Part shown: positions 1 through 45,313 of the stretch, one piece after another
How positions within the stretch are numbered: position 1 is the first letter of the stretch
Layout of the letters: each line of letters begins with the position of its first letter
Virus record (IMG/VR): IMGVR_UViG_3300023284_000581
Location: 1 to 52,582 of that record
Length of the DNA stretch: 52,582 nt
Origin: a virus
Lineage: Duplodnaviria > Caudoviricetes
Direction: 5' to 3' (one strand)
Program-made: the position numbers and the translations under genes
The notes under the pieces: model-generated
Seen by the model: only the letters and a program-made list of their open reading frames with translations
Database searches by the model: none
Told to the model about the DNA's origin: nothing

Positions 1-144
1 GCCGCTTGGTCGGCGATCCATGTACTGCATTCGAAGCGCACGGCCGACATATCGTTCTTCGAAAACAATGCCCGGCCGGACTTCCTGCTGACCGCCAAAC
101 CCGGGACCAACCCGGATCAGGTCGATCGCCTGGATTCGAAAATC
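1..144. repeat. Terminal direct repeat (copy 1), assembly overlap of a circular genome
   Basis: Bases 1-144 are identical to 52439-52582 (gccgcttggtcggcg...ggattcgaaaatc), and the portal reading frame continues across the join. Confidence 0.97.
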
Positions 145-1413
145 AGTAAGCTGCTGCGCGGTGCCCGTAAGGCCGGGCGCTGGCTGTCCGTAACGGGTGA
201 CATCACGGTTACGCCGATGCAGTTCCCGCCCAAGGATGCGGGGCTGGACCCATCGGTGCTGGAGGAACTTGCGGCTGTATTCGGCTACCCGATCACGAAG
301 CTCAAGGGCAACGACCCGAACCGCGCCAACGCGGAGCAGGGCGACCTGACCCACATGCGCGATACGATTCTGCCGATGCTGCGCGGCGATGAGGAGCGGA
401 TCAACCAGTGGCTTGAGGAGATCGATGAGGTGTTCGCGAACGGTGACGCCTGTTTTGCCTACGACGATCCGGTGCCGGTGAATCAGGAGCAGAAGCGTGC
501 TGATGAATTTCATCAGTTCCAAACCGGCCAGGTGTCATCCAATACGCTGGCGGTCGGCAACGGCCTGGAGCCGAATGAGGGCGGCGATAGTCCGCTGGTC
601 AATGCCGGACTGGTTAAGTTGCAGGACGTGGGCAAACAGCCGGCGGGCCTGTTCGGTGGTCTCGGTGGATTCGGCGGGGCGCAGGGGAGCCCGGGGGCGG
701 GGGTTCCGGGGTTGACGTTGCAGCCGACTGGGGGCGGGCTGCAATTACCAGGTGCACCGAAGCCCGATCAGGACGGCGCTGCAGATCAGGCAGCGCAGAA
801 TGTCGTGGCGGGCGAGAAGCTGAACGGCGCCAAGATCACTGCTGCCGTGGAAGTCCTGGATAAGGTCACGGCAGGGCAGACGCCTCCCGAGGTCGGCAAG
901 GAATTGCTTGTAGCCGTGGGCATCGATGAGGGGCGGGCCAGTCGAATGATCGCATCGGTCGAGGCATTTGAACCAGCGCCCGTGTCCGCGCCATCTGGTA
1001 AAATAGCCGGCAATGTTCAACCTGATATTTCTAGTCGAGACCTGGGGCGAACATCCGGTGACGATCCGGGACGAGTCGATCAGGATTCCTCGGATGCAGC
1101 CAACCGTTCTATCGGTAGTGACTCGGACGGAAATCAAACCCTTCGAGATTGTGATAAATCGCTTGGGCACATCGAAGAACGTGGAAGTGGCGATGGCGAT
1201 GGCCGATCAGACAAGGCTGCTTCACCACCCACTGACGGACCTGCCGGACAATCTGCTGGACCTGATGAACAAGCGACCCGCGCCAGCATCGAACTCGGCA
1301 AATCTTCGCCAGTAAGATACAAACTCAAGCTCTACGCGATCCCGCCACTAGTCCAACAGATCGCTGCTGACAGCGCCCGGGCCCAAGCTGGTTGGGCTGC
1401 TGATATGCATTGA
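1..1413 (+). CDS. Portal protein, C-terminal part (continues from 51659 across the circular join; about 730 aa total)
   Basis: Frame 1 is open from base 1 (AAWSAIHVLHSKRTADISFFENNARPDFLL), giving the HK97-portal-like FF.N.ARP motif. It is followed by a long Gly/Pro/Asp/Ser-rich extension. Confidence 0.88.
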   Translation, partial: AAWSAIHVLHSKRTADISFFENNARPDFLLTAKPGTNPDQVDRLDSKISKLLRGARKAGRWLSVTGDITVTPMQFPPKDAGLDPSVLEELAAVFGYPITKLKGNDPNRANAEQGDLTHMRDTILPMLRGDEERINQWLEEIDEVFANGDACFAYDDPVPVNQEQKRADEFHQFQTGQVSSNTLAVGNGLEPNEGGDSPLVNAGLVKLQDVGKQPAGLFGGLGGFGGAQGSPGAGVPGLTLQPTGGGLQLPGAPKPDQDGAADQAAQNVVAGEKLNGAKITAAVEVLDKVTAGQTPPEVGKELLVAVGIDEGRASRMIASVEAFEPAPVSAPSGKIAGNVQPDISSRDLGRTSGDDPGRVDQDSSDAANRSIGSDSDGNQTLRDCDKSLGHIEERGSGDGDGRSDKAASPPTDGPAGQSAGPDEQATRASIELGKSSPVRYKLKLYAIPPLVQQIAADSARAQAGWAADMH

Positions 1414-1437
1414 AACAGACCAATCGTCGGTTATACT
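1410..1437 (+). promoter_or_regulatory. Putative sigma70 promoter TTGAAA-16-TATACT
   Basis: Near-consensus hexamers in the gap before the 1469 gene. Confidence 0.45.
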
Positions 1438-1468
1438 TGTCGGCGATGATTACAATAGGGGTTAACGA

Positions 1469-1846
1469 ATGGCTTTTACGATTCCGAAGGAAAAATTTGG
1501 CAAGACCAAGGGCGGCGGCAGATTCCACAGCGCGACTGCGACCGGCACCGGGGTGATGGATGAGTCTCTGACCACGGGGCTGAATTGTTCCGTGAGGGAA
1601 ATCCGCCTGCACCTGAGCGCTGCCGGGGCCACGGCTGAAAACTTTACCGGGCAACACGACGCCCAAGAGGGCGTGGTCTTCGATCTTCTGATTGTATCGC
1701 AGGACATGAATGGCGAAACTGATTTTCACCGCGTCTATGATGGCGAGGGCATGGTGTTGGATCAGAACGACCTAATAGATTTTGATTATGCCAACACCGA
1801 CGCGCGTACCTGGGGGTTGGAGATCATCTACAAGGAATTACGCTAA
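1469..1846 (+). CDS. Hypothetical protein, probably virion-associated
   Basis: 125 aa ORF coupled to the next gene (TAATG overlap), beta-rich composition. Confidence 0.6.
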   Translation: MAFTIPKEKFGKTKGGGRFHSATATGTGVMDESLTTGLNCSVREIRLHLSAAGATAENFTGQHDAQEGVVFDLLIVSQDMNGETDFHRVYDGEGMVLDQNDLIDFDYANTDARTWGLEIIYKELR

Positions 1847-2457
1847 TGACTGATTTCCTAAGCGGTATAGAACAAACTGGCGGTGTACCAGCCGCGCATA
1901 CTTTAGGCGGCGCGCAGCACACCGCAGACACACTCGCGAATCTCAACACCAAGGTGTCGGACGCCACGCTTGACGAGATAAGCCATCTGGATGACTTCGA
2001 TGCTAATGATGCCATATTCCCATCGTCAAATCCAGCGGCGGCAATCGCGAGAAACAATCATCCGGTTCTTGCGTTCGATGCTGACACTGCTGAATCCGTT
2101 ATCTTCAATGGCTCGATGCTCAGGGATTACCTAGCAGCTAGCATCCTAGTGGACATCGATTGGGTTTCCGCGTCGGCTGTTGTTGGTGACGTCGTCTGGG
2201 GAATCGAGATTGAACGAATCGCACCGGGTGCTCAAGACATTGGCTCCGATGGGTTCGCCGCTCAGATAACCGGAACGAGCACCACAAGCGGGACGACGGG
2301 CATCATCACGCGCACGACCATAACGTTGACACAGGCGCAGGCCGATGCCATCACAGCGGGAGATGGCTACCGCATGCGAGTACAACGAGTTGCTGCTGAT
2401 GGCGGTGACACGATGCTGCTCGACGCTCAAATCGTTCGCGTGATCGTGAGGCAATAA
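1846..2457 (+). CDS. Putative virion structural/decoration protein
   Basis: Ala/Thr/Asp-rich beta-sandwich-like sequence in the head region with coupled overlaps on both sides. Confidence 0.6.
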   Translation: MTDFLSGIEQTGGVPAAHTLGGAQHTADTLANLNTKVSDATLDEISHLDDFDANDAIFPSSNPAAAIARNNHPVLAFDADTAESVIFNGSMLRDYLAASILVDIDWVSASAVVGDVVWGIEIERIAPGAQDIGSDGFAAQITGTSTTSGTTGIITRTTITLTQAQADAITAGDGYRMRVQRVAADGGDTMLLDAQIVRVIVRQ

Positions 2458-3146
2458 TGGCTCGCAACTTCGACGGCATAGACGATCACCTGGAGGTCGG
2501 CGATGTTCCGGCCCTGCGATTTCTGGGCGGTTCTGCGGATAAGATGTCGATCTCGGTGTGGGTCAAGATCGCATCCAAGACCGCCGAGAAGAAGGTGGTG
2601 GCCAAGTGGGAAGATGAACCTGATGAAACTCAGCGCAGCTATCTTTTAACAATTGACACTGGCGATAATGACACTCCCCGCTTCGCTGTTACCAATGCGA
2701 GCGGCACCGTTGCGATCACGAGCGCGACGACCAATATGGTCATCGGGACGTGGCATCACCTCGCCGGAACTTACGATGGGGCGAACGTCCGGATCTACGT
2801 CGATGGACTAGAGGAAGGTTCGGCTGCATTGACCGGTGCTATTAAATCAACCACAGCCGTAGTTAGGGTTGGCAGCGGTTCAGGGGGTCCCACCGTAGAA
2901 AACCCAATGCATGGCGACATTGGACATCTTGCGGCGTGGGACGTCGCGCTGAGCCCGGGTGAAGTGCAAACATTGGCGACGGGCCTTTCGCCGCTGAGAA
3001 TTAACAGAGCGAACCTAACGTTCTACGGTCCGATCAACGGCCAGTCGCCTGGGCTAGATGTGGTTGGCAGCCTTCCCTTGACAGTAACGGGAACGACCGT
3101 CAGCGAAGAACCCCCGATCCCCAATAGCATTGTGTGCCCGGGATGA
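2457..3146 (+). CDS. LamG / concanavalin A-like lectin domain protein (head appendage or adhesin)
   Basis: SISVWVK, GTWHHLAGTYDGANVRIYVDG and GDIGHLAAWDVALSPGEV are typical Laminin_G_3 motifs. Confidence 0.85.
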   Translation: MARNFDGIDDHLEVGDVPALRFLGGSADKMSISVWVKIASKTAEKKVVAKWEDEPDETQRSYLLTIDTGDNDTPRFAVTNASGTVAITSATTNMVIGTWHHLAGTYDGANVRIYVDGLEEGSAALTGAIKSTTAVVRVGSGSGGPTVENPMHGDIGHLAAWDVALSPGEVQTLATGLSPLRINRANLTFYGPINGQSPGLDVVGSLPLTVTGTTVSEEPPIPNSIVCPG

Positions 3147-3147
3147 A

Positions 3148-4902
3148 ATGACTGAAACTATCGCCGACAAAATCGCAAACGGCACGCCCCTCGACTTGAT
3201 GGAGAAGAAGACGGTCGTGGATTCGTGGGACGGGCTGTCGCCCGATCAGCGCGTTCGATATGGCGGTGATGTCGGGTTGCGGTGGATGCAGAAGACGATC
3301 GAGCAGGATGGCAAGAACCTGGGCTCGGGTTTGGTCGATAAATTCCTGAAGACTGGCAAGGTCGGATCGAACAAGGTCACGCGCCTGCCCGGGGAGTCGG
3401 TAGACGAGTGCGTTGAGCGTGCGGTCCCGCTACTGATCAACGAGGGCATGGAGCAGGACGAGGCGGTGGCGGTCGCCCACTCGATGTGCGAGAAATGTAT
3501 CAAGGCCAAGGGCCCCGAACAGTTCGCCCAGTGGGTGGCCGATCAGGGCGATAAGGTCGAAGCTGCTTGGATGCGCGGGATGCAGGTATTTGTCAGTATG
3601 CCCGCCAGTGAAGGCCAGGAAGACTTCGAAGATGTAATCCACGAACTGCAGGAGCTGCTTGGCGATGATTACATGGTGGACGTGCAGACCGAAGCCGAGC
3701 CGACCGAGGGCGAGGGCTGGGAACGGGTGAAGTACAACGGGGAAGACGAGGATGAGAAGCAAAAGCGATGGACCCGAAAGGAATTCTACCGCGATGAGCT
3801 TACGCCGCTTGGCCGTTGGATGTATGACTGGGGCGGCGACAGCCAGGAGATATTGATCCTTAAACCGCCATCGAATATCGGCGCTGAGCCTGATCCAAAC
3901 AGGACGGTCGAAAAGTTCCTACTGTCCCAAGCCAAAGCGGCTTGGCGTGCCAAAGTCGAAGCCGCCGAAGACATCCGCGACGAAGAGCCCGACGCGCCGA
4001 TCATTCGCCTCGCTCGCGGATTGGCCGACATCTTCGCACGACAAGAGGCTGAGGTTCTGGCCGCTGTGGTCGAGTCAAACAAGGGTAAAAAGTCCGTCCG
4101 CTTCAAGATCAACCAGGGCGACATCGACCGCATCCTCCAGATTATCAGCAGCTTTGATGACGAGATTATCGACCTGATGGGGCCGTTCGCCGAGGGCATG
4201 GTTGGGCTGGGCGGCGATGCTGGCATTGTCCGACTAAACGATCAGTTTGGTCGGCTTGTCGAGGGCGACCCCGACGCGCCGGTCATCGCCGCCTTCGACG
4301 TGACCAACCCGGAGGTGCAGAAGTTCCTCGAATCCTACGCCATTCAGTTGACCGATCAGGTACAACAGCAGTCGGCCGATGCGATCAACCGGGTGCTGCA
4401 ACAGTCGCTCGAAGAGGGCGCGACGACCGCCACGATGGCCAAGCGCATCCAGGAGACGGGCCGGTTCAGCATCGCGCAGGCTGAGCGGATTGCCCGGACC
4501 GAATCGGCGCGGGCGTATGTGTCGGGACAGGATGAAAGTTGGAAGCAGAGCGGCGTTGTGGTTGGAACCCGTTGGCTCCTTGCGCCAGGCGCATGCCCGA
4601 TTTGCCAAGCTGCAGCCGCCGTATTCAACTCGACGGCCAACGGTGTGCCTGCTGGTGAAGCAGCATTAAAGAAAGGCCAGACGCTTTCGTTGCCAGGCGG
4701 CGGTACGTTCACGATTGGTTTTATCGACCTGACTGGTCCCCCGATCCACCCGCATGACCGCTGCGATAAGGTCGCGGTGCTGACCACTGATGCCGAAACC
4801 GCGAAGGCGATAAGCAAGTGGTTCGATGAATACGCGGAGACCGGTAAGTATCCGGCGCCGATCAAGGTCAAGTTGTATCGGTTTGTCCGTAAGGCGGCGT
4901 AA
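3148..4902 (+). CDS. Head morphogenesis protein (Mu F / SPP1 gp7 family) with N-terminal extension
   Basis: QAERIARTESARA, W...ACPIC and PPIHPHDRC motifs; lies between portal and protease. Confidence 0.88.
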   Translation: MTETIADKIANGTPLDLMEKKTVVDSWDGLSPDQRVRYGGDVGLRWMQKTIEQDGKNLGSGLVDKFLKTGKVGSNKVTRLPGESVDECVERAVPLLINEGMEQDEAVAVAHSMCEKCIKAKGPEQFAQWVADQGDKVEAAWMRGMQVFVSMPASEGQEDFEDVIHELQELLGDDYMVDVQTEAEPTEGEGWERVKYNGEDEDEKQKRWTRKEFYRDELTPLGRWMYDWGGDSQEILILKPPSNIGAEPDPNRTVEKFLLSQAKAAWRAKVEAAEDIRDEEPDAPIIRLARGLADIFARQEAEVLAAVVESNKGKKSVRFKINQGDIDRILQIISSFDDEIIDLMGPFAEGMVGLGGDAGIVRLNDQFGRLVEGDPDAPVIAAFDVTNPEVQKFLESYAIQLTDQVQQQSADAINRVLQQSLEEGATTATMAKRIQETGRFSIAQAERIARTESARAYVSGQDESWKQSGVVVGTRWLLAPGACPICQAAAAVFNSTANGVPAGEAALKKGQTLSLPGGGTFTIGFIDLTGPPIHPHDRCDKVAVLTTDAETAKAISKWFDEYAETGKYPAPIKVKLYRFVRKAA

Positions 4903-5111
4903 TGACTATCAACATCCTCATACCCGTAACCAACGACCTGCTGGCCAAAGGAGATCCACTGTTGCGCCAACACCTTGACACTGTGGCTGCGCAAAACCTG
5001 AAACACAAGGGCTACGATCCTGCCAAGTGCACACGGGTTGGCAAAGAGTTTGATAAGGGGCTCGTGGCGTTCAGGGTTAGTTATGAGGTTGGGGCGGAGG
5101 GAGAAAATTAA
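4902..5111 (+). CDS. Hypothetical protein
   Basis: 69 aa ORF with TAATG coupling to the upstream gene. Confidence 0.55.
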   Translation: MTINILIPVTNDLLAKGDPLLRQHLDTVAAQNLKHKGYDPAKCTRVGKEFDKGLVAFRVSYEVGAEGEN

Positions 5112-5112
5112 C

Positions 5113-5436
5113 ATGGGTATAGGATACCGAACAAATGAGTGGGGTTGTGACGTTTGCCATGTCACAGGCGAAGCGGCCGAGGATGATAATCGCTGCTCGG
5201 AATGCAGACGACTGGATCGTTATCCATTTGACCGGGATCCTTGGGCGCGACGTGTATTGCATTGGATTCTCAAGGCATATGGCGCGCCCTGTTACTGGCT
5301 AAGCCATCGCAGTCCCGTTTTCGGTAGCTTCTTTTTGGGTGCCTACTATTGGTCACTTCGCGCCACCTGCAACTGGTGCCGTTTGAACTGGTATGGGCAG
5401 CCGTGCCCGAAAACATTTAGAAAGGTCTGGTTATGA
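5113..5436 (+). CDS. Hypothetical Cys-rich protein
   Basis: ATG at 5113 after GGAGGGAG; CxxC motifs. Confidence 0.5.
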   Translation: MGIGYRTNEWGCDVCHVTGEAAEDDNRCSECRRLDRYPFDRDPWARRVLHWILKAYGAPCYWLSHRSPVFGSFFLGAYYWSLRATCNWCRLNWYGQPCPKTFRKVWL

Positions 5437-5930
5437 ACCGGGTCAGGCCATCATGTTTTGTTGAATTGATCGGGCGGGTATTTTCAGAAATGCCCTTGGG
5501 CATTTCTCGCTTATTGAACGGCACTGACTTTGCAATCGGCCTTTCGCCTTCATGGATAAATTTACACCATAGTAAATCAAGCGAGGACGGACGGTCTTAT
5601 GCCAGTACGTCGCATGCAGTTTGGCCTATGCATCAGAAGCATTTACCAATGGCACAGCGCAATGCAACAGTGGTGCTTAATGATGGTGATGAATTTGATC
5701 GCTTGTTAATTCTACATGAGTTGGGGCATATTTTAGATGAGCGACTTGATTTTGGTTCACCTAAGCCAATCGCAATATCTGACTATGCAAAAACAAGTGA
5801 CGTTGAAGCGTTTGCCACATCATTCCAAGCGTTCCTCACACCACTGGGCGAGGGGAAGTTTAATTACCCCACCTATGGCGATCTATGGGAATCAGATAGC
5901 CGCATGCTGAATTTCTTTAGGAGCTTATAA
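5433..5930 (+). CDS. Zincin-like metallopeptidase domain protein
   Basis: LILHELGHILD (HExxH) plus downstream SDYAKTSDVEAFA (third-ligand E motif); visibly AT-richer than its neighbours. Confidence 0.7.
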   Translation: MNRVRPSCFVELIGRVFSEMPLGISRLLNGTDFAIGLSPSWINLHHSKSSEDGRSYASTSHAVWPMHQKHLPMAQRNATVVLNDGDEFDRLLILHELGHILDERLDFGSPKPIAISDYAKTSDVEAFATSFQAFLTPLGEGKFNYPTYGDLWESDSRMLNFFRSL

Positions 5931-6424
5931 TGAACCGCCGCACATCCCTAAAAGCAATCGCCGCGTCCATCGCCGGTATCGTCGCCGCGCCGTTTACGGT
6001 GTTTGCGAAGCCGAAGCAGACGCAGAAGATCAGCTTGCCGCCGCTTATATTGAACGCGAACGTGGATAAATACCGGGACGGTCTGAAAAAAGCACAGGCG
6101 AAAATCATGGAAACTTTCCGACCCGCAATCATCACGCCGAAGCGGACCATTTCGCACGATGGCCGCTGGGAATATGAATGTCAATTTGTGCGTAGGGTCG
6201 GCGACAGCTTTGAACCCACCGGCGAATCCGTCTTGGCCTACAACACCAGCGAGGGCGGGCACGATCTGTATGAATTGGAAGAGGGGCTATTCGTTCAGCC
6301 CGTTGGGGCTGGCGTGAAATTGATCGCGCTGGTGTTCAAGGTCAAAACTGAATCAGGACCACGATACGCCTTCAATTATGAGAATGCTTACAGCAGCGTC
6401 AGGCCACCCGTTTACTACGGATAG
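5930..6424 (+). CDS. Tat-signal protein whose C-terminal domain resembles tail-region protein 16282-16815
   Basis: N-terminus MNRRTSLKAIAASIAGIVAAPFTVFA; shares RW.Y, A.NT.E, PVGAG and F.YENA motifs with 16282-16815. Confidence 0.7.
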   Translation: MNRRTSLKAIAASIAGIVAAPFTVFAKPKQTQKISLPPLILNANVDKYRDGLKKAQAKIMETFRPAIITPKRTISHDGRWEYECQFVRRVGDSFEPTGESVLAYNTSEGGHDLYELEEGLFVQPVGAGVKLIALVFKVKTESGPRYAFNYENAYSSVRPPVYYG

Positions 6425-6434
6425 GAGACTCATC

Positions 6435-7274
6435 ATGACACTAATCAAATCCCCACCCCGACCCGGAACCCCCGAATGGTGGGCCCAGCGCAAAGGCGAG
6501 ATGGCCGACCGCCACGGCCGCGAGGCCGAAAAGATGGTTATCAAGGTTTTGCCCGGTCGCTACAAGATCGATAAGGCTGACCCGTTCCTATTTACCGCCC
6601 AGATCACCAAGCAGATCAACGACCGCGACCGCGAGGTCGTGATGCCCGAGGGAATCCGGCTCAAGAACTTTCGGAGATCCGGCGCTGTCCATTGGATGCA
6701 CGACTTTAGTAAGCCCGTGGCCGTTCCGCGCGATGTCAAGCATGTCGGCGACACGCTTGTATCCACGGCCCGGTTTATGGAACGTGAGCCGGATATGAAG
6801 GGAGAGTTCTTCCCCGACTTCGCGCGCGCGTTCGTTACCCAGATGATCAAGGCTGGCAAGATGCCGGGCGTGTCCATCGGTTTCGAACCCCTGGAATCGC
6901 GGCGACCCACCAGCGGCGACAAAGAGAAGTTCGGCAAGGACGTGCAGTTGATTACCAGCAAGGCCGATCTGCTGGAATGGTCGATCGCGACCGTGCCGTG
7001 CAACCCTCAATCATTCGTAACCACCATCGGCAAATCGCTGGGCCTGTCGCGGCCCGCAATCAAAGAGCTGTTCTATGGCGTGGATCTGCCGGCCAAAGCG
7101 GAACCCGAGCAGGTTGTGGGCGTGATTGCCACGGTGGCGCGCAAGAAACGTGTTGGGCCGGTGCTGATCTACATGGACCCGCCGAAGAAGAAGGCCAAGA
7201 CGGTCAGGCGCGAGGATCCGCAGATCGTGGTGGCGAAGAAGGTGGCGCGGCTGAGTGGCCAGATGTTTGTTTGA
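6435..7274 (+). CDS. HK97-type prohead protease
   Basis: DRDREVVMPEG, VHWMHD (His), GVSIGF (Ser) and LLEWSIATVPCNP motifs; ATG at 6435 follows AGGAG. Confidence 0.88.
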   Translation: MTLIKSPPRPGTPEWWAQRKGEMADRHGREAEKMVIKVLPGRYKIDKADPFLFTAQITKQINDRDREVVMPEGIRLKNFRRSGAVHWMHDFSKPVAVPRDVKHVGDTLVSTARFMEREPDMKGEFFPDFARAFVTQMIKAGKMPGVSIGFEPLESRRPTSGDKEKFGKDVQLITSKADLLEWSIATVPCNPQSFVTTIGKSLGLSRPAIKELFYGVDLPAKAEPEQVVGVIATVARKKRVGPVLIYMDPPKKKAKTVRREDPQIVVAKKVARLSGQMFV

Positions 7275-7315
7275 GTAGGTGCGCGGGTACAGAGTTTTGT
7301 TCCAGTCGGTTTTGC

Positions 7316-7504
7316 TCATGTTCCTTCCTCCAACTTAAACGCCCCGTTCACCCGCTCCGCCCAGTCCGCAAGCAACCCCATCACCTGCCGATACTCCTGG
7401 TCCGGTATCTGATCGTTGATGCTCGGCACGATCTGGCGCAGGACGCCTTGGGCGCAGCGGATCTTGGTCAGGTCGGTGGCGAGGGTGTATTGGGATTCGG
7501 TCAT
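7316..7504 (-). CDS. Hypothetical protein
   Basis: 62 aa ORF coupled to 7501-7926 in a minus-strand mini-operon. Confidence 0.55.
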   Translation of the reverse strand: MTESQYTLATDLTKIRCAQGVLRQIVPSINDQIPDQEYRQVMGLLADWAERVNGAFKLEEGT

Positions 7505-7926
7505 TTTGACTTAGCCTTAAATTCACCGCACCAATCGTTACAACCATCGACATTAGGCCACATCAAGGTGCGGGCACGGGGAACAAAACCATCTCCTGGA
7601 ACATGGGGTGGCGTCTCGGATCGCGGCGTAATCATGAACACATATGCGACAGGAGGGGACTTCCGGCATTCACCATCGCCGCCTTCGATTTCATTAAAAT
7701 AATATTTGCAAAGTCGGCATTGCTCTTTGATGTCAACAATAGCATCTACCGCCTCTTCCGCAGTTTGGCCCGTAAATATTCTGGAGGTATCTTCCTGGTC
7801 TGGCTTTCCTCGCCAAGCCATCACCCCGCCGAAACGCCTGTCCACCGAAACAGTTGTATTGCGTTCTCCGTCATAGTAATAATCCATGCCACTGTAGGGG
7901 CTTTTAATCTCTTCCAACATTGCCAT
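7501..7926 (-). CDS. Hypothetical protein with C-terminal Cys metal-binding domain
   Basis: CRLCKYY...GECRKSPP...WPNV...DWCGEF pattern seen in small phage Cys proteins; GGAG SD. Confidence 0.65.
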   Translation of the reverse strand: MAMLEEIKSPYSGMDYYYDGERNTTVSVDRRFGGVMAWRGKPDQEDTSRIFTGQTAEEAVDAIVDIKEQCRLCKYYFNEIEGGDGECRKSPPVAYVFMITPRSETPPHVPGDGFVPRARTLMWPNVDGCNDWCGEFKAKSK

Positions 7927-7964
7927 CGCTCCAGCTATTATTTTTAGGCATCAACCCGCACCCG

Positions 7965-8150
7965 TCACTCCCCCACCATTGCCACAACCACACTAACTGG
8001 AATCATCCAGTAGCCTTTGGGATTTTGCCGCGCCTTATCCATCGGCGCGGTTTTGTCTTTAATCCAAACACGTCCAGTTTCGGGTGTGATGCCAAGCATT
8101 CGGCACGCTTCAGATAAACGAATGAGTCTATCGGGTTCGTTCTTTTCCAT
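7965..8150 (-). CDS. Excisionase/MerR-like helix-turn-helix DNA-binding protein
   Basis: RLIRLSEACRMLGITPETGRVWIKD...GYWMIP fits the HTH_17/AlpA-like winged HTH pattern. Confidence 0.75.
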   Translation of the reverse strand: MEKNEPDRLIRLSEACRMLGITPETGRVWIKDKTAPMDKARQNPKGYWMIPVSVVVAMVGE

Positions 8151-8156
8151 AAGTTG

Positions 8157-8205
8157 ATCTTAGTAACCACACGGAACCGCTGTCAACCCCCCTTGTTTCG
8201 TGTGG
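8157..8205 (-). promoter_or_regulatory. Leftward promoter TTGACA-18-TAAGAT with flanking inverted repeat (operator); probable leaderless start at 8150
   Basis: TTGACA (8186-8181) and TAAGAT (8162-8157) lie 6 nt before the ATG. Inverted repeat ccacacggaac 8167-8177 / gtttcgtgtgg 8195-8205. Confidence 0.6.
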
Positions 8206-8223
8206 GCAAAATAATTCCACCCC

Positions 8224-8253
8224 TTGCATCGCGCTCCACCCCGCGCTTATAAA
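8224..8253 (+). promoter_or_regulatory. Putative capsid-operon promoter TTGCAT-18-TATAAA
   Basis: Hexamers upstream of the ~185 nt capsid leader; the same TTGCAT -35 occurs in both switch promoters. Confidence 0.5.
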
Positions 8254-8276
8254 ACAACCTCAAGGCAATTCCCCTT

Positions 8277-8368
8277 CGGGCCGGATGGCTGGCAACGGCC
8301 GGGCCGGATGATCGGGGTCTTTTGCCGGGCCGGATGGTCTATCACTTCTCGATAGTCCGGGCCGGATG
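8277..8368 (+). repeat. Four direct repeats of CGGGCCGGATG in the capsid leader
   Basis: Exact copies at 8277, 8300, 8326 and 8358. Confidence 0.9.
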
Positions 8369-8442
8369 GCGAAGACGAAAGCCGCAGTGCTGTGCTTTTG
8401 CGCAGCGGGCATTCGTATTCCACCCATTCGGAGACCGGACAG

Positions 8443-9918
8443 ATGAAACTCAAGCAATTCCTAGCTGTCATCAAACTTGAAATGAAGGGCGGCGCGACGT
8501 TTGACGAGGCCAAAAAGAAGGCTGTCGTCATGCTTGACGGTGATGCCATCCTTGACGAAACCGGCGCGGAGGTCAGCGTTGACCAGATTCAACTGATAAC
8601 AACGGCCCCGGCCAAGCGCGAAGATGAAACCGAAGAGGAGAAAGCCAAGCGCGAAGATGAGGAAGAGTTGAAGCGCAAACTACAGGACGAAGAGGAAGAG
8701 GAGGAAGACCCTGCCAAGGGCAAAATTTATCAGTTCACTGATAAGCAGCTCGATAAGTTCATCAACGCCAAGGCCAAAGCCGACCACGCCGCAGCCGCCA
8801 GCCAGACCAACAAGGCCACGCAGATCGGTATCATTAGCGCTGGCGATGTCACCGGTGGCGGCCCGCGCAATGATCTAGCCAAGACAACTGGCGGGTTTAA
8901 GTGCCTTGGCGACCAAGCCCGGGCAATCCATCAGTATGTGATGGACCCGATCAACCTGGACCCACGGCTCAAGTCCTTCAGCGGCAAATCCACACCCACC
9001 AATGTTTCGGTCGGGCAAGTTGGCTCCGATGGCGGCTTTTCGATCGCCCCGGATTTTCTCGCAGAACTCCAAGGCCATGCGTTTGATGAAAATTCCATTT
9101 TCGCCCTTTGCCGCCAACTGAACACCAGCGGCAACAGCCTGGAACTACCCAAGGATGAGACCGTTCCCTGGGGAACCGATGGCGTGCAGGTTAACTGGAC
9201 CGCCGAAAACGTCGGCATCACAGATAGCAAGTTGAAGATCGGCGCCATCGACATCAAGCTGCACAAGCTCGCCGCTCTGGTGCCTGTTACCAATGAATTA
9301 CTCGAAGACAGCGCCCTGAACCTGGGTTCGTATCTTAACGACACGACCCCGCGCAAGATCCGCTACAAGGTCGATGACGCGATTGTTAACGGCAGCGGCG
9401 CTGGTCAACCGCTGGGCATCCGCAACAGTGGCGCAATCAAAACTGTCACCCGCACGACCGCCACGGGCATCGCGATCGATGAGATCGCCGACCTCATGGC
9501 CGCTGTTCCGTCATGGTCAATCAATAGCGCAACATTCCTGAGCCACACCACGGTCCTACCCGACATCGTTAAGGCGCAGATCGGTAACTTCCCGGTATTC
9601 ATGGCTCCCGGCGCGCTGGAGACCAAAGGGTTGCCCATGGGCCTGATGGGGCGGCCGCTCCTGGTCCATGAAGTGGCCCAAGCTCGGGACAATGCCGGCG
9701 ATCTGGCCTTGCATGATTTCTCACAATATATTTGCGTGACCAAGACGGTTAGCGGCGGAATCCAAGGTCAGATGTCGGTTCACCTGTACTTCGATCGCGA
9801 TGTATCAGCGTTCCGTTTCACCATGCGAATCGGTGGCCAGCCGTGGCTAACCTCGACCATCGCGCAAGACAACGGCGGTGGCACCATCAGCCCGTTCAGT
9901 GAAATCGGCGCTACCTAA
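8443..9918 (+). CDS. Major capsid protein, HK97 fold, with acidic N-terminal scaffold/delta domain
   Basis: DGGFSIAPDF, KLAALVPVTNELLEDS, AIVNGSGAGQPLGI and LMGRPLLV motifs; ATG at 8443. Confidence 0.95.
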   Translation: MKLKQFLAVIKLEMKGGATFDEAKKKAVVMLDGDAILDETGAEVSVDQIQLITTAPAKREDETEEEKAKREDEEELKRKLQDEEEEEEDPAKGKIYQFTDKQLDKFINAKAKADHAAAASQTNKATQIGIISAGDVTGGGPRNDLAKTTGGFKCLGDQARAIHQYVMDPINLDPRLKSFSGKSTPTNVSVGQVGSDGGFSIAPDFLAELQGHAFDENSIFALCRQLNTSGNSLELPKDETVPWGTDGVQVNWTAENVGITDSKLKIGAIDIKLHKLAALVPVTNELLEDSALNLGSYLNDTTPRKIRYKVDDAIVNGSGAGQPLGIRNSGAIKTVTRTTATGIAIDEIADLMAAVPSWSINSATFLSHTTVLPDIVKAQIGNFPVFMAPGALETKGLPMGLMGRPLLVHEVAQARDNAGDLALHDFSQYICVTKTVSGGIQGQMSVHLYFDRDVSAFRFTMRIGGQPWLTSTIAQDNGGGTISPFSEIGAT

Positions 9919-11092: not shown

Positions 11093-11311
11093 ATGGCGAC
11101 GGGAACTCTCACAGTTGAAGTGCGGGCACGATTCCCTTGGTGGTGGAAACCATTGGCCAAGACTGTCGTCTTTGCGAGCCGCTTGGGTATTCGAATGCCT
11201 TTTTCGGAAGAAGCGTTCGCGTCATTCATCATTCGCCGTGCCACATTCCAAACCAAACAAGCAGATAAGTGGGTAGACATTGGCAAGCCTGACCACCAGA
11301 GCAAAGCTTAA
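11093..11311 (+). CDS. Hypothetical protein
   Basis: 72 aa ORF filling the gap, with GAGGG SD. Confidence 0.45.
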   Translation: MATGTLTVEVRARFPWWWKPLAKTVVFASRLGIRMPFSEEAFASFIIRRATFQTKQADKWVDIGKPDHQSKA

Positions 11312-12149
11312 ACGGTACCTGGGTATCAACGAATTGATCAGCGCTGATGATAGCCTGCTTGATTCGTTGATCATCGCGGGCACCAAGCGGATTGAACGCC
11401 TTGCCCATCGGATTTTCTGCGCCAACGACCGGCGCGAATGGCACGATGGCGACGATGCGCATATCAAGGTCAAGAACTGGCCGCTAATACGGGTTAATCG
11501 CGTGATGATCGGTAGCGGCGAGGCCCTGCGTCTGGAATACACGGGGTCGGACATACAGGCCCACGTCTCGGTCTTTTCCGATGCCGACCATGAAACCACC
11601 GGTATCCGGCTAAGCACGCTTAGCGCGACCGGTACGGCGATCAATACCGAGCGAACCTTTGCCAACTTCCTGACGCTTTCACTGATGGCCACCGAGCTAA
11701 ACAGCGTTGCGGATTGGACGGTCACGCAGCGCGGCGACGATTGGAGCGTTAAGGATCTGCACCCGCTGTCGGGGCTCGATGCCAAAGCTACCGCGGTAAA
11801 CCTGACGCGCCCGGATTTCTCCTGTCCATTTGAAACCAACTACCGCACGGGCATTATCGAGATACCCCACCTGCGCGATGCCACGATCCACATGCACCTG
11901 AATGCCTATGACCGACCCCAGACTCGGTTCCAGATGACGCTGGTGGATTATCGTGGTGGGTACGACGCCATCCCGGCGGACATTGAGCAGGTGGCACACG
12001 AGTTTATCCGGGATATGTTTGCCAATACCGACCAACCCAGCGGTGTGCAGTCGGAAAACCTGGGCGATTACGCATACAGCCTCGCCGATCAGACTCAGTT
12101 CAACACTCGCCAACTTGAAATCATCCGTTCTTATGTGGAGTTGGTCTGA
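11280..12149 (+). CDS. Head-tail connector (gp6/gp15-like adaptor)
   Basis: LTTRAKLKRYLGI...DDSLLDSLI and YRGGYDAIPADIEQ...SENLGDYAYS motifs. Confidence 0.82.
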   Translation: MASLTTRAKLKRYLGINELISADDSLLDSLIIAGTKRIERLAHRIFCANDRREWHDGDDAHIKVKNWPLIRVNRVMIGSGEALRLEYTGSDIQAHVSVFSDADHETTGIRLSTLSATGTAINTERTFANFLTLSLMATELNSVADWTVTQRGDDWSVKDLHPLSGLDAKATAVNLTRPDFSCPFETNYRTGIIEIPHLRDATIHMHLNAYDRPQTRFQMTLVDYRGGYDAIPADIEQVAHEFIRDMFANTDQPSGVQSENLGDYAYSLADQTQFNTRQLEIIRSYVELV

Positions 12150-12508
12150 TGACGTTTGTCAAGCGACCTCCGCGTCACTTATTTAATTCGGTCGTCACCG
12201 TGCAGGCCATTACCCAGACCGCGACAGGCGTCGGGGGCGGCTTTACCCAGACATGGCCAAACACACTGGTGAGCATCCAGGCGCGCATACAACCGCAAGT
12301 AGCGGCCTTCAGCGTCCAGCAGGGAACCGAGCGCGAGCGCAAGAAGTACACGGTCTTTATCGCACCAGGCCAGGCGGTTGTCGCCGGCTACCGCATGACC
12401 TTCACCGACTTCGAGGGCACGGCCCGCACTGTCCTGATCGATTCGACCAAGGACAACCAGCTTGGCGGCGTGGTCCTGCGCTGTGACTGTACGGAGGTGC
12501 TGGACTGA
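12149..12508 (+). CDS. Head closure / stopper protein
   Basis: Position and G.GGFTQTW...IQARIQP motif. Confidence 0.7.
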   Translation: MTFVKRPPRHLFNSVVTVQAITQTATGVGGGFTQTWPNTLVSIQARIQPQVAAFSVQQGTERERKKYTVFIAPGQAVVAGYRMTFTDFEGTARTVLIDSTKDNQLGGVVLRCDCTEVLD

Positions 12509-13002
12509 TGGCTAGCAGGGTTGTCTGGAAAGGTGAACAAGCGTTGAAGGCGGCCAAGGTGGCGGCGTGTGCTGCTATTGCTGCGGGCGCTATTTTCATC
12601 CAAGCCGAAACCAAGAAGAATCTGAACCGACACAACAGCGGATCGCCCGCAAAACCTTCCAAGCCTAGTTCCCCAGGCCGTCCACCAGGTAAGCAGAGCG
12701 GCGCCCTGAGCCGATCCATCCAGGTCGATCTATCGGATTGCAAAAACAAACTGATTGCCCGGGTCGGGACGAACCTGATTTATGCCCGCATCCAGGAGTT
12801 CGGCGGCATGATCACGGCCAAGACCGCGAAGTTCCTCAAGTTCATGCTGCCCGATGGAACCTGGCGGATGGTCAAGAGTGTATTTCTGCCGTCCCGCCCT
12901 TATATGCGTCCAGTGATTGCCCGCAAGCAACGCAAGATCCTGGACACCGTTGCGGTCACGTTCCGCAAAGTGTTCTTTAAGCAGACACGGAACCTTCGAT
13001 GA
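12508..13002 (+). CDS. HK97 gp10-like neck/tail completion protein
   Basis: PGRPPGKQSGALSRSI, VGTNLIYARIQEFG and PSRPYMRP motifs. Confidence 0.85.
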   Translation: MASRVVWKGEQALKAAKVAACAAIAAGAIFIQAETKKNLNRHNSGSPAKPSKPSSPGRPPGKQSGALSRSIQVDLSDCKNKLIARVGTNLIYARIQEFGGMITAKTAKFLKFMLPDGTWRMVKSVFLPSRPYMRPVIARKQRKILDTVAVTFRKVFFKQTRNLR

Positions 13003-13418
13003 GCCAAGTTGAGTTCAACAAGGCGGTGCTGACCAAGTTCACCGGCAGCGGTGCGCTCGACACTGCGCTGACCAGTCGGTTCTTTGACACGATGCCGCCA
13101 ACCGATGCGAACGGCCAACTATTGGCGAATCTGCCGTTCCTGGTCTGGACCGTCACTACCGACGTCCACCCACCTAATTTCATTCGCGACGATCTGGACG
13201 TGATTATTCAAATCGACCTTTGGTCAAAGAAAGAGACTGGCAAGGAAGCGGCGACGGCAAACAACGATTTGATCGTTGCACTGTTAAACCGTCAGTCGCT
13301 GACCATGACCGGCGTAACCGGTATTACCGGCCGAGTCGAAGACAGAGGAACCCCCTCGTTTGAGGGTGACGCCATCCGAATTTTATCGTCCTACCGATTC
13401 GTAGGCACTGGGAGCTAA
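12999..13418 (+). CDS. Tail terminator protein (DUF3168-like)
   Basis: Position before the tail tube gene; PFLVW and IQIDLWS motifs. Confidence 0.72.
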   Translation: MSQVEFNKAVLTKFTGSGALDTALTSRFFDTMPPTDANGQLLANLPFLVWTVTTDVHPPNFIRDDLDVIIQIDLWSKKETGKEAATANNDLIVALLNRQSLTMTGVTGITGRVEDRGTPSFEGDAIRILSSYRFVGTGS

Positions 13419-14113: not shown

Positions 14114-14476
14114 ATGATTGCTGAATTATCAAAAGTCGCAACAACCCATAACGAGGTGGAGTTGCGCAAACTCACGATGCAAAACTGGGCCGATTTGGCG
14201 TCTAAGTTGCCAGATCATATTAAAGACCGGGGGATCGATGGGGTAATCGAATGGATTACTGGACATCCCGGAGGCCTGGTTGCTGGGCTAAAAATGGTTA
14301 CTTCGATGAGCGATGAACAGCTACTTGGACTTACGGACGTCTTCGGTTGGTCAAAGGCGTTGGGAGAGTGTATCGCGCCCCCAAAAGATCAAGGCTCGGA
14401 GAATACGGATCCGGGCCGACCGACTGGATCGTCGAGTGTGCCACGTTCGAATACATCTACAAGCGCTCACCAATGA
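14114..14476 (+). CDS. Tail assembly chaperone (gpG-like)
   Basis: Strong SD, located upstream of the tape measure, contains slippery site CCCAAAA at 14380-14386. Confidence 0.75.
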   Translation: MIAELSKVATTHNEVELRKLTMQNWADLASKLPDHIKDRGIDGVIEWITGHPGGLVAGLKMVTSMSDEQLLGLTDVFGWSKALGECIAPPKDQGSENTDPGRPTGSSSVPRSNTSTSAHQ

Positions 14477-14595
14477 GCATGACGTTGCGGCAGTTCGACG
14501 ATTACCGAATGCAAGCCGCGTATTTCAAAGCCCTGGAAAGCGGCGACGAGAAAGCGATTACCAAGCAGCGATTCTTTATGTTAATGAGGAACTAG
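14380..14595 (+). CDS. Tail assembly chaperone frameshift extension (gpGT-like), reached by -1 frameshift
   Basis: In-frame C CCA AAA (X XXY YYZ). The -1 frame is open to 14595 (PKRSRLGEYG...SPMSMTLRQF...) and ends 1 nt before the tape measure ATG. Confidence 0.75.
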   Translation, partial: PKRSRLGEYGSGPTDWIVECATFEYIYKRSPMSMTLRQFDDYRMQAAYFKALESGDEKAITKQRFFMLMRN

Positions 14596-14596
14596 C

Positions 14597-15406
14597 ATGG
14601 CGCCCAAGGCAACTGTTGCTGAAATGATTATTGAGCTTAGGGCCGACACTAAACGGCTCAGGGCCGATTTCAAGAAAGCGCGCAGGCTGTCCGACGATGA
14701 AGCCAAGAAGATCGGCAAGGGGTTTCGCGATCAGTTCGGCGAGACGATGGGCCAGATAGGCCAGATTCGGGCTGTGACAGGAGAGATCGCCAATGTTGCC
14801 AACGGACTTACCGAAATGGGCAAGAAGCTGCGCATGGTTGAAAGTGATGCTGAAGGAATCCTGGTTGTCTTCGAGTCTATGCCATTTGGCATCGGGCAAG
14901 CGGTCAGTTCGGTTAAGGGCTTGTTCAATGAATTGTCCGGGGCCGCCGAACAAGCGGAGAGGCTGGCAAAATTCCGGCTCGGTCAATCAATAGAGGGGCG
15001 CAGGACTGCATCAAGGGACGCGATCGCCCGGGGTCTGAGCAACAGACTCGCGTTGGCAACCGCCAAGACCCCGCAGGCCCGGCAGGCTATCCAGAACCAG
15101 CAACAAGTAGAAACCCTGAGGTCTCAATTCAGGAGGATCGGGGGCTTTGATCCGTTCAGTTCGAGGCAAGACGACAAGTTGCCAGCGCAGTTCCAGGCAG
15201 CGCTTGCCTCGCTAAAGGAGCTGCAGGGGCTTGCCGGTGGCGGTGGGGCTGGCGGTGTGCCAGGGGCCCGAACCATCAGCCTGTCGCGCACGGCATTTGG
15301 CGGGCCCGGCGGCGCTGAAATGGGCAAGCCGATTAACGAGCGACAAGGCACGCGGATCATCGAACTCCTCGAACAAGGGAACACCCAGGGGGCGACAGCA
15401 GGATAA
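14597..15406 (+). CDS. Tape measure protein, unusually short (269 aa)
   Basis: Follows the G/GT pair; N-terminus VAEMIIELRADTKRL is typical of tape measures; Ala/Gly/Gln helical composition. Confidence 0.7.
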   Translation: MAPKATVAEMIIELRADTKRLRADFKKARRLSDDEAKKIGKGFRDQFGETMGQIGQIRAVTGEIANVANGLTEMGKKLRMVESDAEGILVVFESMPFGIGQAVSSVKGLFNELSGAAEQAERLAKFRLGQSIEGRRTASRDAIARGLSNRLALATAKTPQARQAIQNQQQVETLRSQFRRIGGFDPFSSRQDDKLPAQFQAALASLKELQGLAGGGGAGGVPGARTISLSRTAFGGPGGAEMGKPINERQGTRIIELLEQGNTQGATAG

Positions 15407-16278
15407 TGGCACCGAAAGTCACATTAAAACACGCTGGCACCTCGGTAGGCGATACCGTCGCCACCTTTGCCTATCAAATTATCGATCTGGATGCTGGCCC
15501 CTCCGGTGATTTTGCGCCTGGAGACTCCGCGCTGCAAAGCGTTGACCGCGCTATGCAAGCCTACAACGTACTGCCTGTCAAGAAAAAAGACTTCCCGAAA
15601 AAAGGACTGGGTTGGCAGTTCGATGCCAAGCAGATCACCAGCATCGACAGCGCCACAGCCGCGTCCGGTTTCGTTCGTTACGTAAAACTGAAAGCCGCCG
15701 CCGAAGTTACTTTTCGCATGGGCTCGATCGTTCGGTCGGTGACGACTGAAACCGATGTGGACAGCAAACCCATCGTGGTTGAATACACCGGAAAAGACGG
15801 GACCATGGGCGATCCGATCAGTGCCACGACCAATCAATTCATCCCGAATAACACACTGATCGTTAACCACCAGACGACCAACCCGCCATTCAGCCAGTTG
15901 GCCAATGTCGGAAAAGTTAACGAGAAAGCATGGATAGGCAACGTCTTGGGCCGCATCGACGTGCCTGACGGCGCTGGCCAGTGGCTGTTTCATGCGTTGG
16001 AGTTGCCGACGTTTAACCCAAGGGATCTAGCGGAAAGTACGGCGGAGGTTCCCCCCTACAACGTCCAATACACCTTTGTATTGGACCAAGACACATTCCA
16101 TCCGGTTGTGGCAGCGATAAATCCGGCAACAGGCAAACAGTTTTCCAATAACACCAAGCCCGACCGAATAGAACCCGGCCAAAAGGGCAATGGAACACTT
16201 GTGGTGCAGACTCAGAAGATTCTCGATTTCGGAACCCTCCCATTTGTCGCAACGCTCAAACGATTACGCAACAGGTAA
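15406..16278 (+). CDS. Tail tip / distal tail region protein
   Basis: Coupled immediately after the tape measure. Confidence 0.55.
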   Translation: MAPKVTLKHAGTSVGDTVATFAYQIIDLDAGPSGDFAPGDSALQSVDRAMQAYNVLPVKKKDFPKKGLGWQFDAKQITSIDSATAASGFVRYVKLKAAAEVTFRMGSIVRSVTTETDVDSKPIVVEYTGKDGTMGDPISATTNQFIPNNTLIVNHQTTNPPFSQLANVGKVNEKAWIGNVLGRIDVPDGAGQWLFHALELPTFNPRDLAESTAEVPPYNVQYTFVLDQDTFHPVVAAINPATGKQFSNNTKPDRIEPGQKGNGTLVVQTQKILDFGTLPFVATLKRLRNR

Positions 16279-16281
16279 GCC

Positions 16282-16815
16282 ATGATTGATCGAATACAAA
16301 ATGGCCAAAGATTGCAAGGCGGCCTAGACGGCAACCTGAACAATGCCGCACGTGTGATGAACCCGATCATTTCGCAGCTTGATAGCTCTGCCTTGGACTT
16401 GGTGCGGCAAATCGTGGCTCTGATGTTCCCCTTTTCGGCCAAGATCACCGAATGGGAGGAGATTGACACCGATAGCAACCGTTGGAAGTACGCATGGGAA
16501 GAAGTAGCCAGAACTTCGGCTGATGCCTTCACCAATTCATCGGACCTAAAGAGATCGGGCACCCTTACCACCGACTACGCGCTCAACACGATTGAGGCCG
16601 TCAATGACGGAACCGGTGTACACGGCAATAGTGTGGACATCGACGGCGCAGACTATCCGGCCGGTTTCGAGCAGAAGCCAGTAGGCGCGGGCAGCGGCGG
16701 AACGCCTGATAAGGAAGTGGTTGTGATTATGAGCCCGATTGTCGGGTCGGACGGCAATATTAGTTTCCAATTCCAATACGAGAATGCAGACGATGGAACT
16801 TGTGAGGCGCCTTAA
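16282..16815 (+). CDS. Tail-region structural protein
   Basis: Position in the tail-tip block; paralogous motifs with 5930-6424. Confidence 0.6.
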   Translation: MIDRIQNGQRLQGGLDGNLNNAARVMNPIISQLDSSALDLVRQIVALMFPFSAKITEWEEIDTDSNRWKYAWEEVARTSADAFTNSSDLKRSGTLTTDYALNTIEAVNDGTGVHGNSVDIDGADYPAGFEQKPVGAGSGGTPDKEVVVIMSPIVGSDGNISFQFQYENADDGTCEAP

Positions 16816-17225
16816 TGTCATGGCGACACGGATCATGCGAATGCTGCGCAAACTGCCCAAGCGATTGCACGGCTTGCCCGTCAATCAGCGCCACGATCAC
16901 CGGCGGGACCGGATGTTGCTGCTCATCGGTCAATGTCGCCAGCCAGGCGCTTACCCGTATTGGCTGTACATGGTCGGCATCGTATTTCGGTGTGGATACC
17001 GGCATTGCAACCATCGACATCACTTGCGATGGAGTCACCAATGAATGGGTCTATACGGTCACGATCACCAGCCACGATGTTTGTGGCGGAGCCTGCAACG
17101 CCGACCAGGAAGTATGGGAAGGCCGCCAGCCCGCCAGTGCGTGCCCGGAAACAACGAGTCTTTCGCTTACTCACCAGTCGGGATCTGATTGCTCGGCACA
17201 AACTTTAACCCTAACGGTCGCATGA
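16815..17225 (+). CDS. Cys-rich tail-region protein
   Basis: N-terminus SCECCANCPSDCTAC and many further Cys; TAATG coupling. Confidence 0.65.
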   Translation: MSWRHGSCECCANCPSDCTACPSISATITGGTGCCCSSVNVASQALTRIGCTWSASYFGVDTGIATIDITCDGVTNEWVYTVTITSHDVCGGACNADQEVWEGRQPASACPETTSLSLTHQSGSDCSAQTLTLTVA

Positions 17226-44265: not shown

Positions 44266-44631
44266 ATGGACAAGCTGCCCGACGACTGGCTGACGCAACT
44301 GCTGGGCGGATTGCCGCCGGAGTACGCGGCGCTGGTGCTCCTGGCCCTGATCGCGCTGGCGGCGTGGATCGCATACCTGGTGATCGGGAAGAAGAAGAGC
44401 AAGAACAACGAGGACCAAGCTTTACGCGAGATCCACGAGAAGAAGACCATGCCGGACTTCATCCGCGACACGTCGAGCCTGATGGTCGATCATGGCAACA
44501 CGAAGCGGCGTGTAAATAAACAAGGCGCCAACGTCGATTGGCATCATGACCGGATCGCACAGATCGAATTTAAGCTGGGTTTGAAGCCGCCACGGATGCG
44601 ACGGGAGATTGAGGACGAGTCGGACGGGTAA
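44266..44631 (+). CDS. Single-TM membrane protein, holin/antiholin-like
   Basis: TM segment YAALVLLALIALAAWIAYLVI followed by GKKK and a charged soluble domain; extended -10 TGaTAGAAT 6 nt upstream of the ATG. Confidence 0.65.
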   Translation: MDKLPDDWLTQLLGGLPPEYAALVLLALIALAAWIAYLVIGKKKSKNNEDQALREIHEKKTMPDFIRDTSSLMVDHGNTKRRVNKQGANVDWHHDRIAQIEFKLGLKPPRMRREIEDESDG

Positions 44632-44649
44632 TTGAGGTATAATCGGGCG

Positions 44650-44805: not shown

Positions 44806-44890
44806 CATCCATCCCGCGCGCTCTGTACGATTCAGACGTGTAGCACCGGCAGGGAGACCTGCCCATGATGTCAATACGCCGGTGCTACAC
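44802..44890 (+). promoter_or_regulatory. Promoter TTGACA-18-TACGAT followed by a 13-bp stem enclosing the SD and start codon
   Basis: GTGTAGCACCGGC (44838-44850) / GCCGGTGCTACAC (44878-44890) perfect inverted repeat; inner GGCAGG-GAGA-CCTGCC hairpin. Confidence 0.75.
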
Positions 44891-45308: not shown

Positions 45309-45313
45309 ACGAT

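Follow-up and report, generated by a model that had tools for sequence, protein, structure and literature searches.

The described systems closest to the gene reported here include envelope blockers of phage entry, among which Cor-type lipoproteins are grouped with the Llp-like proteins. In Ff phages, endogenous pIII saturates TolA and blocks superinfection, as an excerpt of one source describes (PMC7070036). T5 Llp is presented, in excerpts of two sources, as a lipoprotein that binds FhuA and sits in the outer membrane, at its inner leaflet (bioRxiv 10.64898/2026.03.26.714494; PMC9586334), and a preprint announces in its title that prophages block receptors, with progeny survival as the consequence (10.1101/2024.03.05.583538). 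In the literature on superinfection exclusion, receptor-binding-protein paralogues and Planctomycetes prophage signals (without supplements), we found no description of a tailed-phage protein that combines a signal with a paralogous tail domain. Here we analyzed a stretch of 52,582 bp from a virus (Duplodnaviria; Caudoviricetes; IMG/VR record IMGVR_UViG_3300023284_000581), hereafter the window, which is a complete virus record with direct terminal repeats. The subject is the gene at 5930-6424 (P0001, hereafter the target), whose product joins an export-type N-terminus to a domain that is almost certainly homologous to a protein of the phage's tail module. The target is a real and unusual gene, known from sequences alone and in two examples: its sole relative among 5.8 billion proteins is P0002 (155 amino acids (aa), 79% identical in the alignment). 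The target, its parts and the open reading frames (ORFs) most relevant to it are as follows.

5930-6424, + strand: target gene P0001, 164 aa, from the ORF list
5919-5923, + strand: Shine-Dalgarno-like AGGAG, six bases 5' of the target ATG, read from the sequence
5930-6007, + strand: export-type N-terminus, residues 1-26, with MNRRTSLK as n-region, a hydrophobic core and VFA
6008-6115, + strand: residues 27-62, opening with basic KPKQTQK and continuing with a linker of low confidence and a helix predicted at 45-62 (predicted local distance difference test (pLDDT) of the blocks, 54-84)
6116-6421, + strand: residues 63-164, an OB-fold-like beta-barrel that has diverged from the homologous C-terminal domain of the tail family
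5433-5930, + strand: 165-aa ORF with a zincin-like HELGH...EAFA motif, translationally coupled to the target
6435-7274, + strand: prohead protease (Peptidase_S78), directly 3' of the target
16282-16815, + strand: tail-module protein P0003, 177 aa, with N-terminal helices and then an OB-fold-like C-terminal domain in the AlphaFold2 (AF2) model

The first-pass annotation, made from the letters of the window, had proposed that the C-terminal ~100 aa of the target are colinear with P0003, and the alignments bear this out: the similarity exceeds chance, and every motif pair it had listed was found in them. BLASTP of the two proteins gave 30/117 identities (26%; E 0.001, for a single comparison), and hhalign of the target and P0002 against eight tail-family proteins gave a probability of 81% (E 1.2e-5). 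A hidden Markov model (HMM) of eight tail proteins placed the target as the best non-member of 2364 ORFs (E 0.0097; next 0.47) and, reciprocally, an HMM of the target found tail-family members (E 0.015). With an HMM of 152 family members, from which the target pair was left out, the target scored 25.5 bits (E 1.1e-6 among the 2364 ORFs; next non-member 2.4); these 152 members had been retrieved by a profile in which the target pair made up 2 of 10 rows. In an 87-row alignment, the target retains three residues that are invariant in the family: Y70, N102 and E105 in tail-protein numbering correspond to its Y82, N105 and E108. The target lacks the terminal D-G-x-C motif of the family, in which C174 is invariant and G172 nearly so (85 members), and ends in ...ENAYSSVRPPVYYG with no Cys; also missing is an insert of ~12 residues that the family has after a short helix. 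The target is thus an extreme outlier of the tail-module family.

The second copy of the domain, P0003, is supported as a component of the tail module, as the first-pass annotation had assumed. Adaptor, neck and terminator genes lie upstream of it, and its surroundings are the following.

11,280-13,418: adaptor, head-completion, neck and tail-terminator genes
14114-14476 and 14313-14627: two overlapping small ORFs ahead of the 269-aa ORF
14597-15406, + strand: 269-aa tape-measure-like ORF
15406-16278, + strand: 290-aa ORF directly upstream of P0003
to 19,369, + strand: additional ORFs

P0003 has seven relatives among the 5.8 billion proteins, and a profile of both families, run against 1.84 billion representatives, gave 1623 matches at E≤1e-3, of which 872 reached E≤1e-10 and 66 reached E≤1e-30. 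The domain sits C-terminally in proteins of 120-894 aa with very variable N-terminal parts. Its carriers comprise 21 IMG/VR loci and one contig of a Planctomycetota metagenome-assembled genome (MAG), which gives the single lead to a host. In 21 of the 23 sources (these 22 loci and the window) the family gene follows immediately, or almost so, on the end of an ORF of 241-298 aa, itself usually preceded by an ORF of 269-1034 aa; since some loci are near-identical (L006/L007; L015-L018), the number of independent cases is smaller. In the loci that show a capsid gene, the family gene is found downstream of that gene, at a distance of 6-8.5 kb. This place, after the tape measure, is the usual one for tail-tip genes. 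The target is unlike the family in this respect, lying in the head operon and not after an ORF of 241-298 aa. The label "tail tip" given to P0003 in the first-pass annotation draws on gene position and a weak fold resemblance, and on nothing beyond these two.

In the Planctomycetota MAG locus L023, the corresponding place is taken by a 365-aa ORF, to which the 269-aa ORF of the window is related (27% identity over 114 aa, E 4e-5). The ORFs of 241-298 aa have no PHROG match (apart from one chance-level capsid match) and no PDB relative, and for that reason cannot be called Dit; they occupy the same place, and homology among them is not established. The family itself matched nothing in Pfam, PHROG, NCBIfam or PADLOC, gave no tblastn match in 50,697 phage records and has no solved relative by sequence; for ten long members, Pfam and PHROG returned nothing beyond a sub-threshold CBM_56 (E 0.0024). 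Many members start with a G-D/E-x-I/L-T/S-A-x-x-L-N-like motif, as judged by eye. One genome (G002) carries a second copy of the domain (L024 8045-8476, - strand, corresponding to G002:C1:38044-38475), cut N-terminally by the contig end and adjoining a 320-aa ORF and terminase genes, and in another (G012, locus L025) the domain is repeated within one frame of 401 aa. In the window, P0003 is directly followed by a Cys-rich ORF of 136 aa (16815-17225, + strand; CECCANCPSDCTACPS... near its start), for which no family match was found in Pfam, PHROG or NCBIfam.

What sets the target apart from this family is its N-terminus, which reads MNRRTSLK, then AIAASIAGIVAAPFTVFA, then KPKQTQK. The RR pair stands at residues 3-4, residues 9-26 are 18 uncharged hydrophobic residues with VFA at 24-26, and Kyte-Doolittle hydropathy averages 2.01 over the best stretch of 15 residues. 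The first 83 residues hold no Cys and therefore no lipobox. This arrangement is the n/h/c one of secretion signals: RR falls in the n-region, the core is uncharged over at least 13 residues, a small residue occupies -1, and VFA is a possible signal-peptidase I site. Simple sequence rules are unspecific here, because a crude RR-plus-uncharged rule also matches 34 of 2338 ORFs of at least 50 aa, most of them surely non-genes, and because a hydropathy scan also flags a neck protein. That flag falls on an Ala-rich stretch and is the only other one in the + strand structural module, where the N-terminus of the target is unique of its kind. Several features lean toward twin-arginine translocation (Tat), namely the N-terminal RR pair, the K after the motif, a moderately hydrophobic core rich in Ala, Gly and Ser, and three lysines among the first seven residues after the core. 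Export by Sec is impeded by basic residues that directly follow the hydrophobic core, and such residues are frequent in Tat signals, which also include uncleaved anchors such as that of the Rieske protein. The nearest clusters of ESM features were those of the periplasmic [Fe] hydrogenase small subunit, TAT_signal and the Rieske TAT-signal, at 0.82-0.87 (bar 0.9; a lead only). We consider it likely that the target protein is exported or anchored in the membrane.

Among the 154 family proteins inspected, an N-terminus with RR and a hydrophobic stretch was found in two, the target and P0002. These proteins were the best ~150 of the 1623 matches, and further signal-bearing cases may exist among the ~1470 others. 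Within the inspected set, the observations support the view that the target and P0002 alone acquired an export-type N-terminus. The first-pass annotation had suggested seeking the fusion of signal and tail domain in related genomes; it did not turn up, as none of 21 related virus records (2 of them at least 90% complete) holds a second signal-bearing copy. Close relatives of the target are likewise absent from IMG/VR and from GTDB genomes, and in cultured phages only chance matches were found (E 0.6). The RR pair is kept in P0002, as the annotation's idea of a conserved motif would have it; since P0002 is the sole relative and so similar overall, this says little.

The two sequences differ unevenly along their length. 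They are identical at 35/39 positions over residues 1-39, which span the signal and the first part of the linker (22/26 for residues 1-26 and 13/13 for residues 27-39), at 3/23 positions in the linker at 40-62, the most variable part, where P0002 has a deletion of nine residues, and at 85/102 positions in the domain at 63-164. For this single pair of sequences, the pattern would fit selection on the signal and on the domain. It also bears on the possibility that the target is a decaying or neutral duplicate that drifts without a role and owes its hydrophobic N-terminus to chance. Such drift would agree with the extremely long branch, the loss of family motifs, the existence of just two known sequences and the frequency with which the crude rule is matched. 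However, both phages retain an intact frame at a divergence of 21% of residues, the signal and the domain are far better conserved than the linker that joins them, the ribosome-binding site is strong, the fold prediction is confident and the invariant positions are kept. Because of the conservation pattern above all, we regard a neutral duplicate as very unlikely.

The origin of the domain is less clear-cut than its homology. The first-pass annotation had inferred a duplicated domain, and duplication within this lineage is the simplest reading, although not proven. The best tree found that keeps the target pair together with P0003/P0004 has a log-likelihood 30.2 above that of a free quick tree and is not rejected (approximately unbiased test, p-AU 0.80), and the motifs PVGAG and F-x-YENA are common to the target and the P0003/P0004 subgroup. 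On the other side, a very long branch separates the target pair from everything else in the tree (8.5 changes per column or more along the path to each other row), and phmmer does not place the copy of the same genome, P0003, among the 40 best matches of the target.

The gene itself is an integral part of the late head operon, within which the first-pass annotation had correctly placed it (+ strand, 164 aa). This follows from the Shine-Dalgarno-like site, the overlaps with its neighbors, the lack of a promoter-like site of its own and its phage-like composition. Its ATG shares one base with the TAA of the upstream ORF (TAATG), and its TAG (6422-6424) overlaps a GGAG ahead of the likely protease start at 6435; no promoter-like site was seen just upstream, and a scan of 2,800-8,600 gave 5 sites against 3.8 ± 2.0 expected. 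GC content (0.543) and GC at third codon positions (GC3, 0.67) are like those of the phage's own genes. These overlaps and the ribosome-binding site, together with the relative P0002, the phage-like GC3 and the mean pLDDT of 80.2 for the AF2 model (89.1 for the tail-module protein), make up the evidence that the gene is real.

The coupling to the upstream ORF raises the possibility that the target is the partner of the zincin-like protein, either as a periplasmic immunity protein or inhibitor, or as a Tat "hitch-hiking" carrier; in the carrier version the target, with its signal, would form a folded complex with the enzyme, which has none, and bring it across the membrane. The stop/start overlap of the two genes would suit such a partnership, as would the conservation of HELGH...EAFA in the one relative of the upstream protein (46% identity), and MuF-linked toxin/immunity cassettes of temperate phages are known. 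However, the ORF at 5433-5930 is a sharp island of low GC (0.45, against ~0.57; GC3 0.43) and a foreign insert in the head operon, and the mismatch with the composition of the target indicates that the two genes were not acquired together. This mismatch also makes a toxin-immunity cassette unlikely. A weaker point on the same side is that the upstream protein has no relative near enough to share the phage of P0002. The ORF has no match in Pfam or NCBIfam and a weak one to a PHROG without known function (E 0.0045), and a complex prediction of the zincin-like protein with target residues 27-164 scored 0.02, which is uninformative either way. Overall, a partnership with the zincin-like protein seems to us scarcely probable.

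Position and fold also bear on a further alternative, in which the target would be a virion-borne ejection or pilot protein whose hydrophobic N-terminus is a membrane-insertion segment released into the envelope at infection. Membrane-active ejection proteins are present in other tailed phages. The target lies among the head-morphogenesis genes, between the gene for the MuF-like minor head protein and that for the prohead protease, and is translationally coupled to its neighbors; its domain is related to one of the tail module and, in the models, bears a weak resemblance to spike OB domains that meet the membrane. Both AF2 models show a helix and then a small beta-barrel. Foldseek against PDB gave no match at E≤0.001 for either model, with weak OB-fold rows only, and among 48,161 chains compared by VIA-align, 25 of the 50 listed matches were common to both. 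The layout of a central spike, in which a beta-helical needle comes after an N-terminal OB domain (P2 gpV, Mu baseplate chain V/gp45, R2 pyocin and VgrG-like proteins have the OB domain N-terminally), is not that of the target or P0003, in which the barrel is C-terminal and ends both models. Furthermore, the RR pair and K, the 18 uncharged residues and VFA form a canonical secretion layout, which the export machinery would probably capture before assembly, no such segment occurs in the other 152 family proteins inspected, and the target matched no family of head or ejection proteins. We therefore consider an ejection protein rather unlikely.

We propose, as a tentative reading that is somewhat improbable when taken in full, that the target is an envelope decoy derived from the phage's own tail-tip domain, made late, which occupies the entry site or captures tail tips of this phage and its relatives. 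The protein would consist of three parts, namely a cleavable or anchoring export signal (residues 1-26), a short basic linker with a helix, and the OB-fold-like domain. It would leave the cytoplasm for the periplasm, or stay tethered to the cytoplasmic membrane facing outward. The RR pair and the three lysines right after the core would make Tat the probable route, with Sec or an uncleaved anchor as alternatives; given export, we put the chance of Tat at about even. Because the domain keeps the invariant Y, N and E, it may bind the same envelope component or partner tail protein as the virion-borne domain, and the bound protein would mask the entry site or jam tail tips. Expression alongside the late head genes would direct the benefit, against superinfection and wasteful adsorption, to an infected or induced cell and its progeny rather than to the quiet lysogen, and late co-expression would indeed fit protection of the productive cell and progeny better than that of a lysogen. 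Overall, a function in exclusion or masking is plausible, if on the doubtful side. A bolder variant is conceivable, in which the signal-bearing copy pairs, in the cytoplasm, with a signal-less partner, such as the tail paralogue, and the folded complex passes through Tat.

Several observations weigh against an envelope decoy. Having lost D-G-x-C and the internal insert, the target may not bind the ligand of the tail protein. The place of the gene does not suit classical superinfection exclusion either: it has no promoter-like site of its own and is packed tightly among late head genes, in contrast to known exclusion genes, which are expressed from the prophage, and the accessory region of this phage with a lipoprotein-like gene adjoins the integrase, away from the target. 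The target has no family match in Pfam, PHROG, NCBIfam or PADLOC, among them none to exclusion or defense families (Llp/Cor, Sie, PADLOC), and two sequences of its kind among ~15 billion proteins give no comparative basis for a function under selection. That the two AF2 models look alike (same DSSP class at 78/101 aligned positions, compared along the sequence alignment) is in part a product of the alignment used for the target, in which the tail family dominates. The "twin-arginine signal" of the first-pass annotation stands as far as MNRRTSLK, the hydrophobic stretch and VFA are concerned; the Tat label itself fares less well. The Tat-signal models PF10518 (hmmscan, Pfam E≤0.1) and TIGR01409 (NCBIfam, E≤10) do not match the target protein, and both were silent in a six-frame search of the genome at E≤10, while finding matches in 12 of 14 control genomes; models this short overlook many true signals. 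In addition, RRx is followed by S (RRTSLK) and not by the F of the consensus, the core has nearly the same charge on either side (+3 and +3, by reading), so that the topology is not obvious, and the target has no cofactor-binding cargo that would need Tat.

Late expression and an export-type N-terminus would equally suit a late envelope accessory that binds wall or membrane and aids lysis and release, by timing or completing disruption or by sensing the periplasm, the more so as no canonical endolysin or spanin family was found among the genes scanned. Yet the candidate membrane and lipoprotein genes and a lipase lie at 44.2-46.9 kb, and an ORF with three predicted membrane helices at 51427-51654, all far from the target, nothing ties OB-fold tail domains to lysis, and the kept Y, N and E point to the ligand of the tail protein. 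A role in lysis thus appears unlikely to us, and distinctly so.

Because of its gene content, which includes head and tail modules, replication genes, a tyrosine integrase and a terminase, the phage is temperate and siphovirus-like. Besides the replication and recombination genes (RecT, DnaB and methylases), the window holds the following.

1-9,918: genes for portal, MuF-like protein, prohead protease (S78) and HK97-type capsid
41,987-43,240: tyrosine integrase
49,646-51,061: large terminase

The capsid protein is at most 37% identical to those of cultured phages, with Ralstonia and Bradyrhizobium phages as best matches. It has 508 aa (8392-9918, + strand), and its Phage_capsid domain begins at residue 214; the long N-terminal part may be a built-in scaffold. 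Between the prohead protease and capsid genes lie three small ORFs on the - strand (7316-8150; 62, 141 and 61 aa), the 61-aa one with an HTH_17 domain, in a segment of lower GC (0.485-0.515) with a promoter-like TTGACA-18-TAAGAT at 8186-8157; within the head operon, they resemble an insert of the moron type. On the + strand, a cluster that lies downstream of the integrase (44266-46933) comprises ORFs of 121 aa (one hydrophobic helix), 147 aa (N-terminus resembling that of a lipoprotein, LTSC by reading) and 261 aa, as well as a class-3 lipase/esterase (Pfam 1.6e-19, PHROG 1.5e-19), the start of which is overlapped by a tRNA-Met (45313-45388, ARAGORN). The ORF at 51427-51654 (+ strand, 75 aa, three hydrophobic segments) has the terminase gene on one side and, on the other, the portal ORF, which continues past the record end; this 75-aa ORF has no PHROG match.

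Independent of the function of the target, our analysis exposes a large unannotated tail-module family with a fixed place in the tail modules of uncultured phages and one match in a Planctomycetota genome, and the exported paralogue could help to assign a function to this family. If the target is exported and blocks entry, it would represent a simple route to superinfection exclusion, in which a part of the tail that touches the cell is duplicated, given a leader and used as a competitor, and it would also offer a handle on the ligand of that tail part. The closest parallel to such a self-derived blocker is pIII, which in the excerpt of its source is the phage's own host-recognition protein, exported to the envelope of the infected cell, where it stops further entry (PMC7070036); the first-pass annotation had proposed the same logic for the target. 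The difference is that pIII is a virion protein that is exported anyway, as filamentous phages assemble at the membrane, whereas the target would be a separate, signal-bearing copy in a tailed phage that assembles in the cytoplasm, has no sequence relation to pIII and would have a blocking role by inference. Like Llp as portrayed in the excerpts cited above, the target would be small, encoded by the phage and located in the envelope, would block the receptor that the phage itself uses, and would protect the infected cell and progeny. Llp, however, is an early-expressed lipoprotein for which these excerpts report no relation to a tail protein, whereas the target has no lipobox, belongs to a late operon and is homologous to a domain of the tail module. 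Phage envelope proteins that act on phage entry are known, and the signal-bearing paralogue of a tail domain would be a new form among them.

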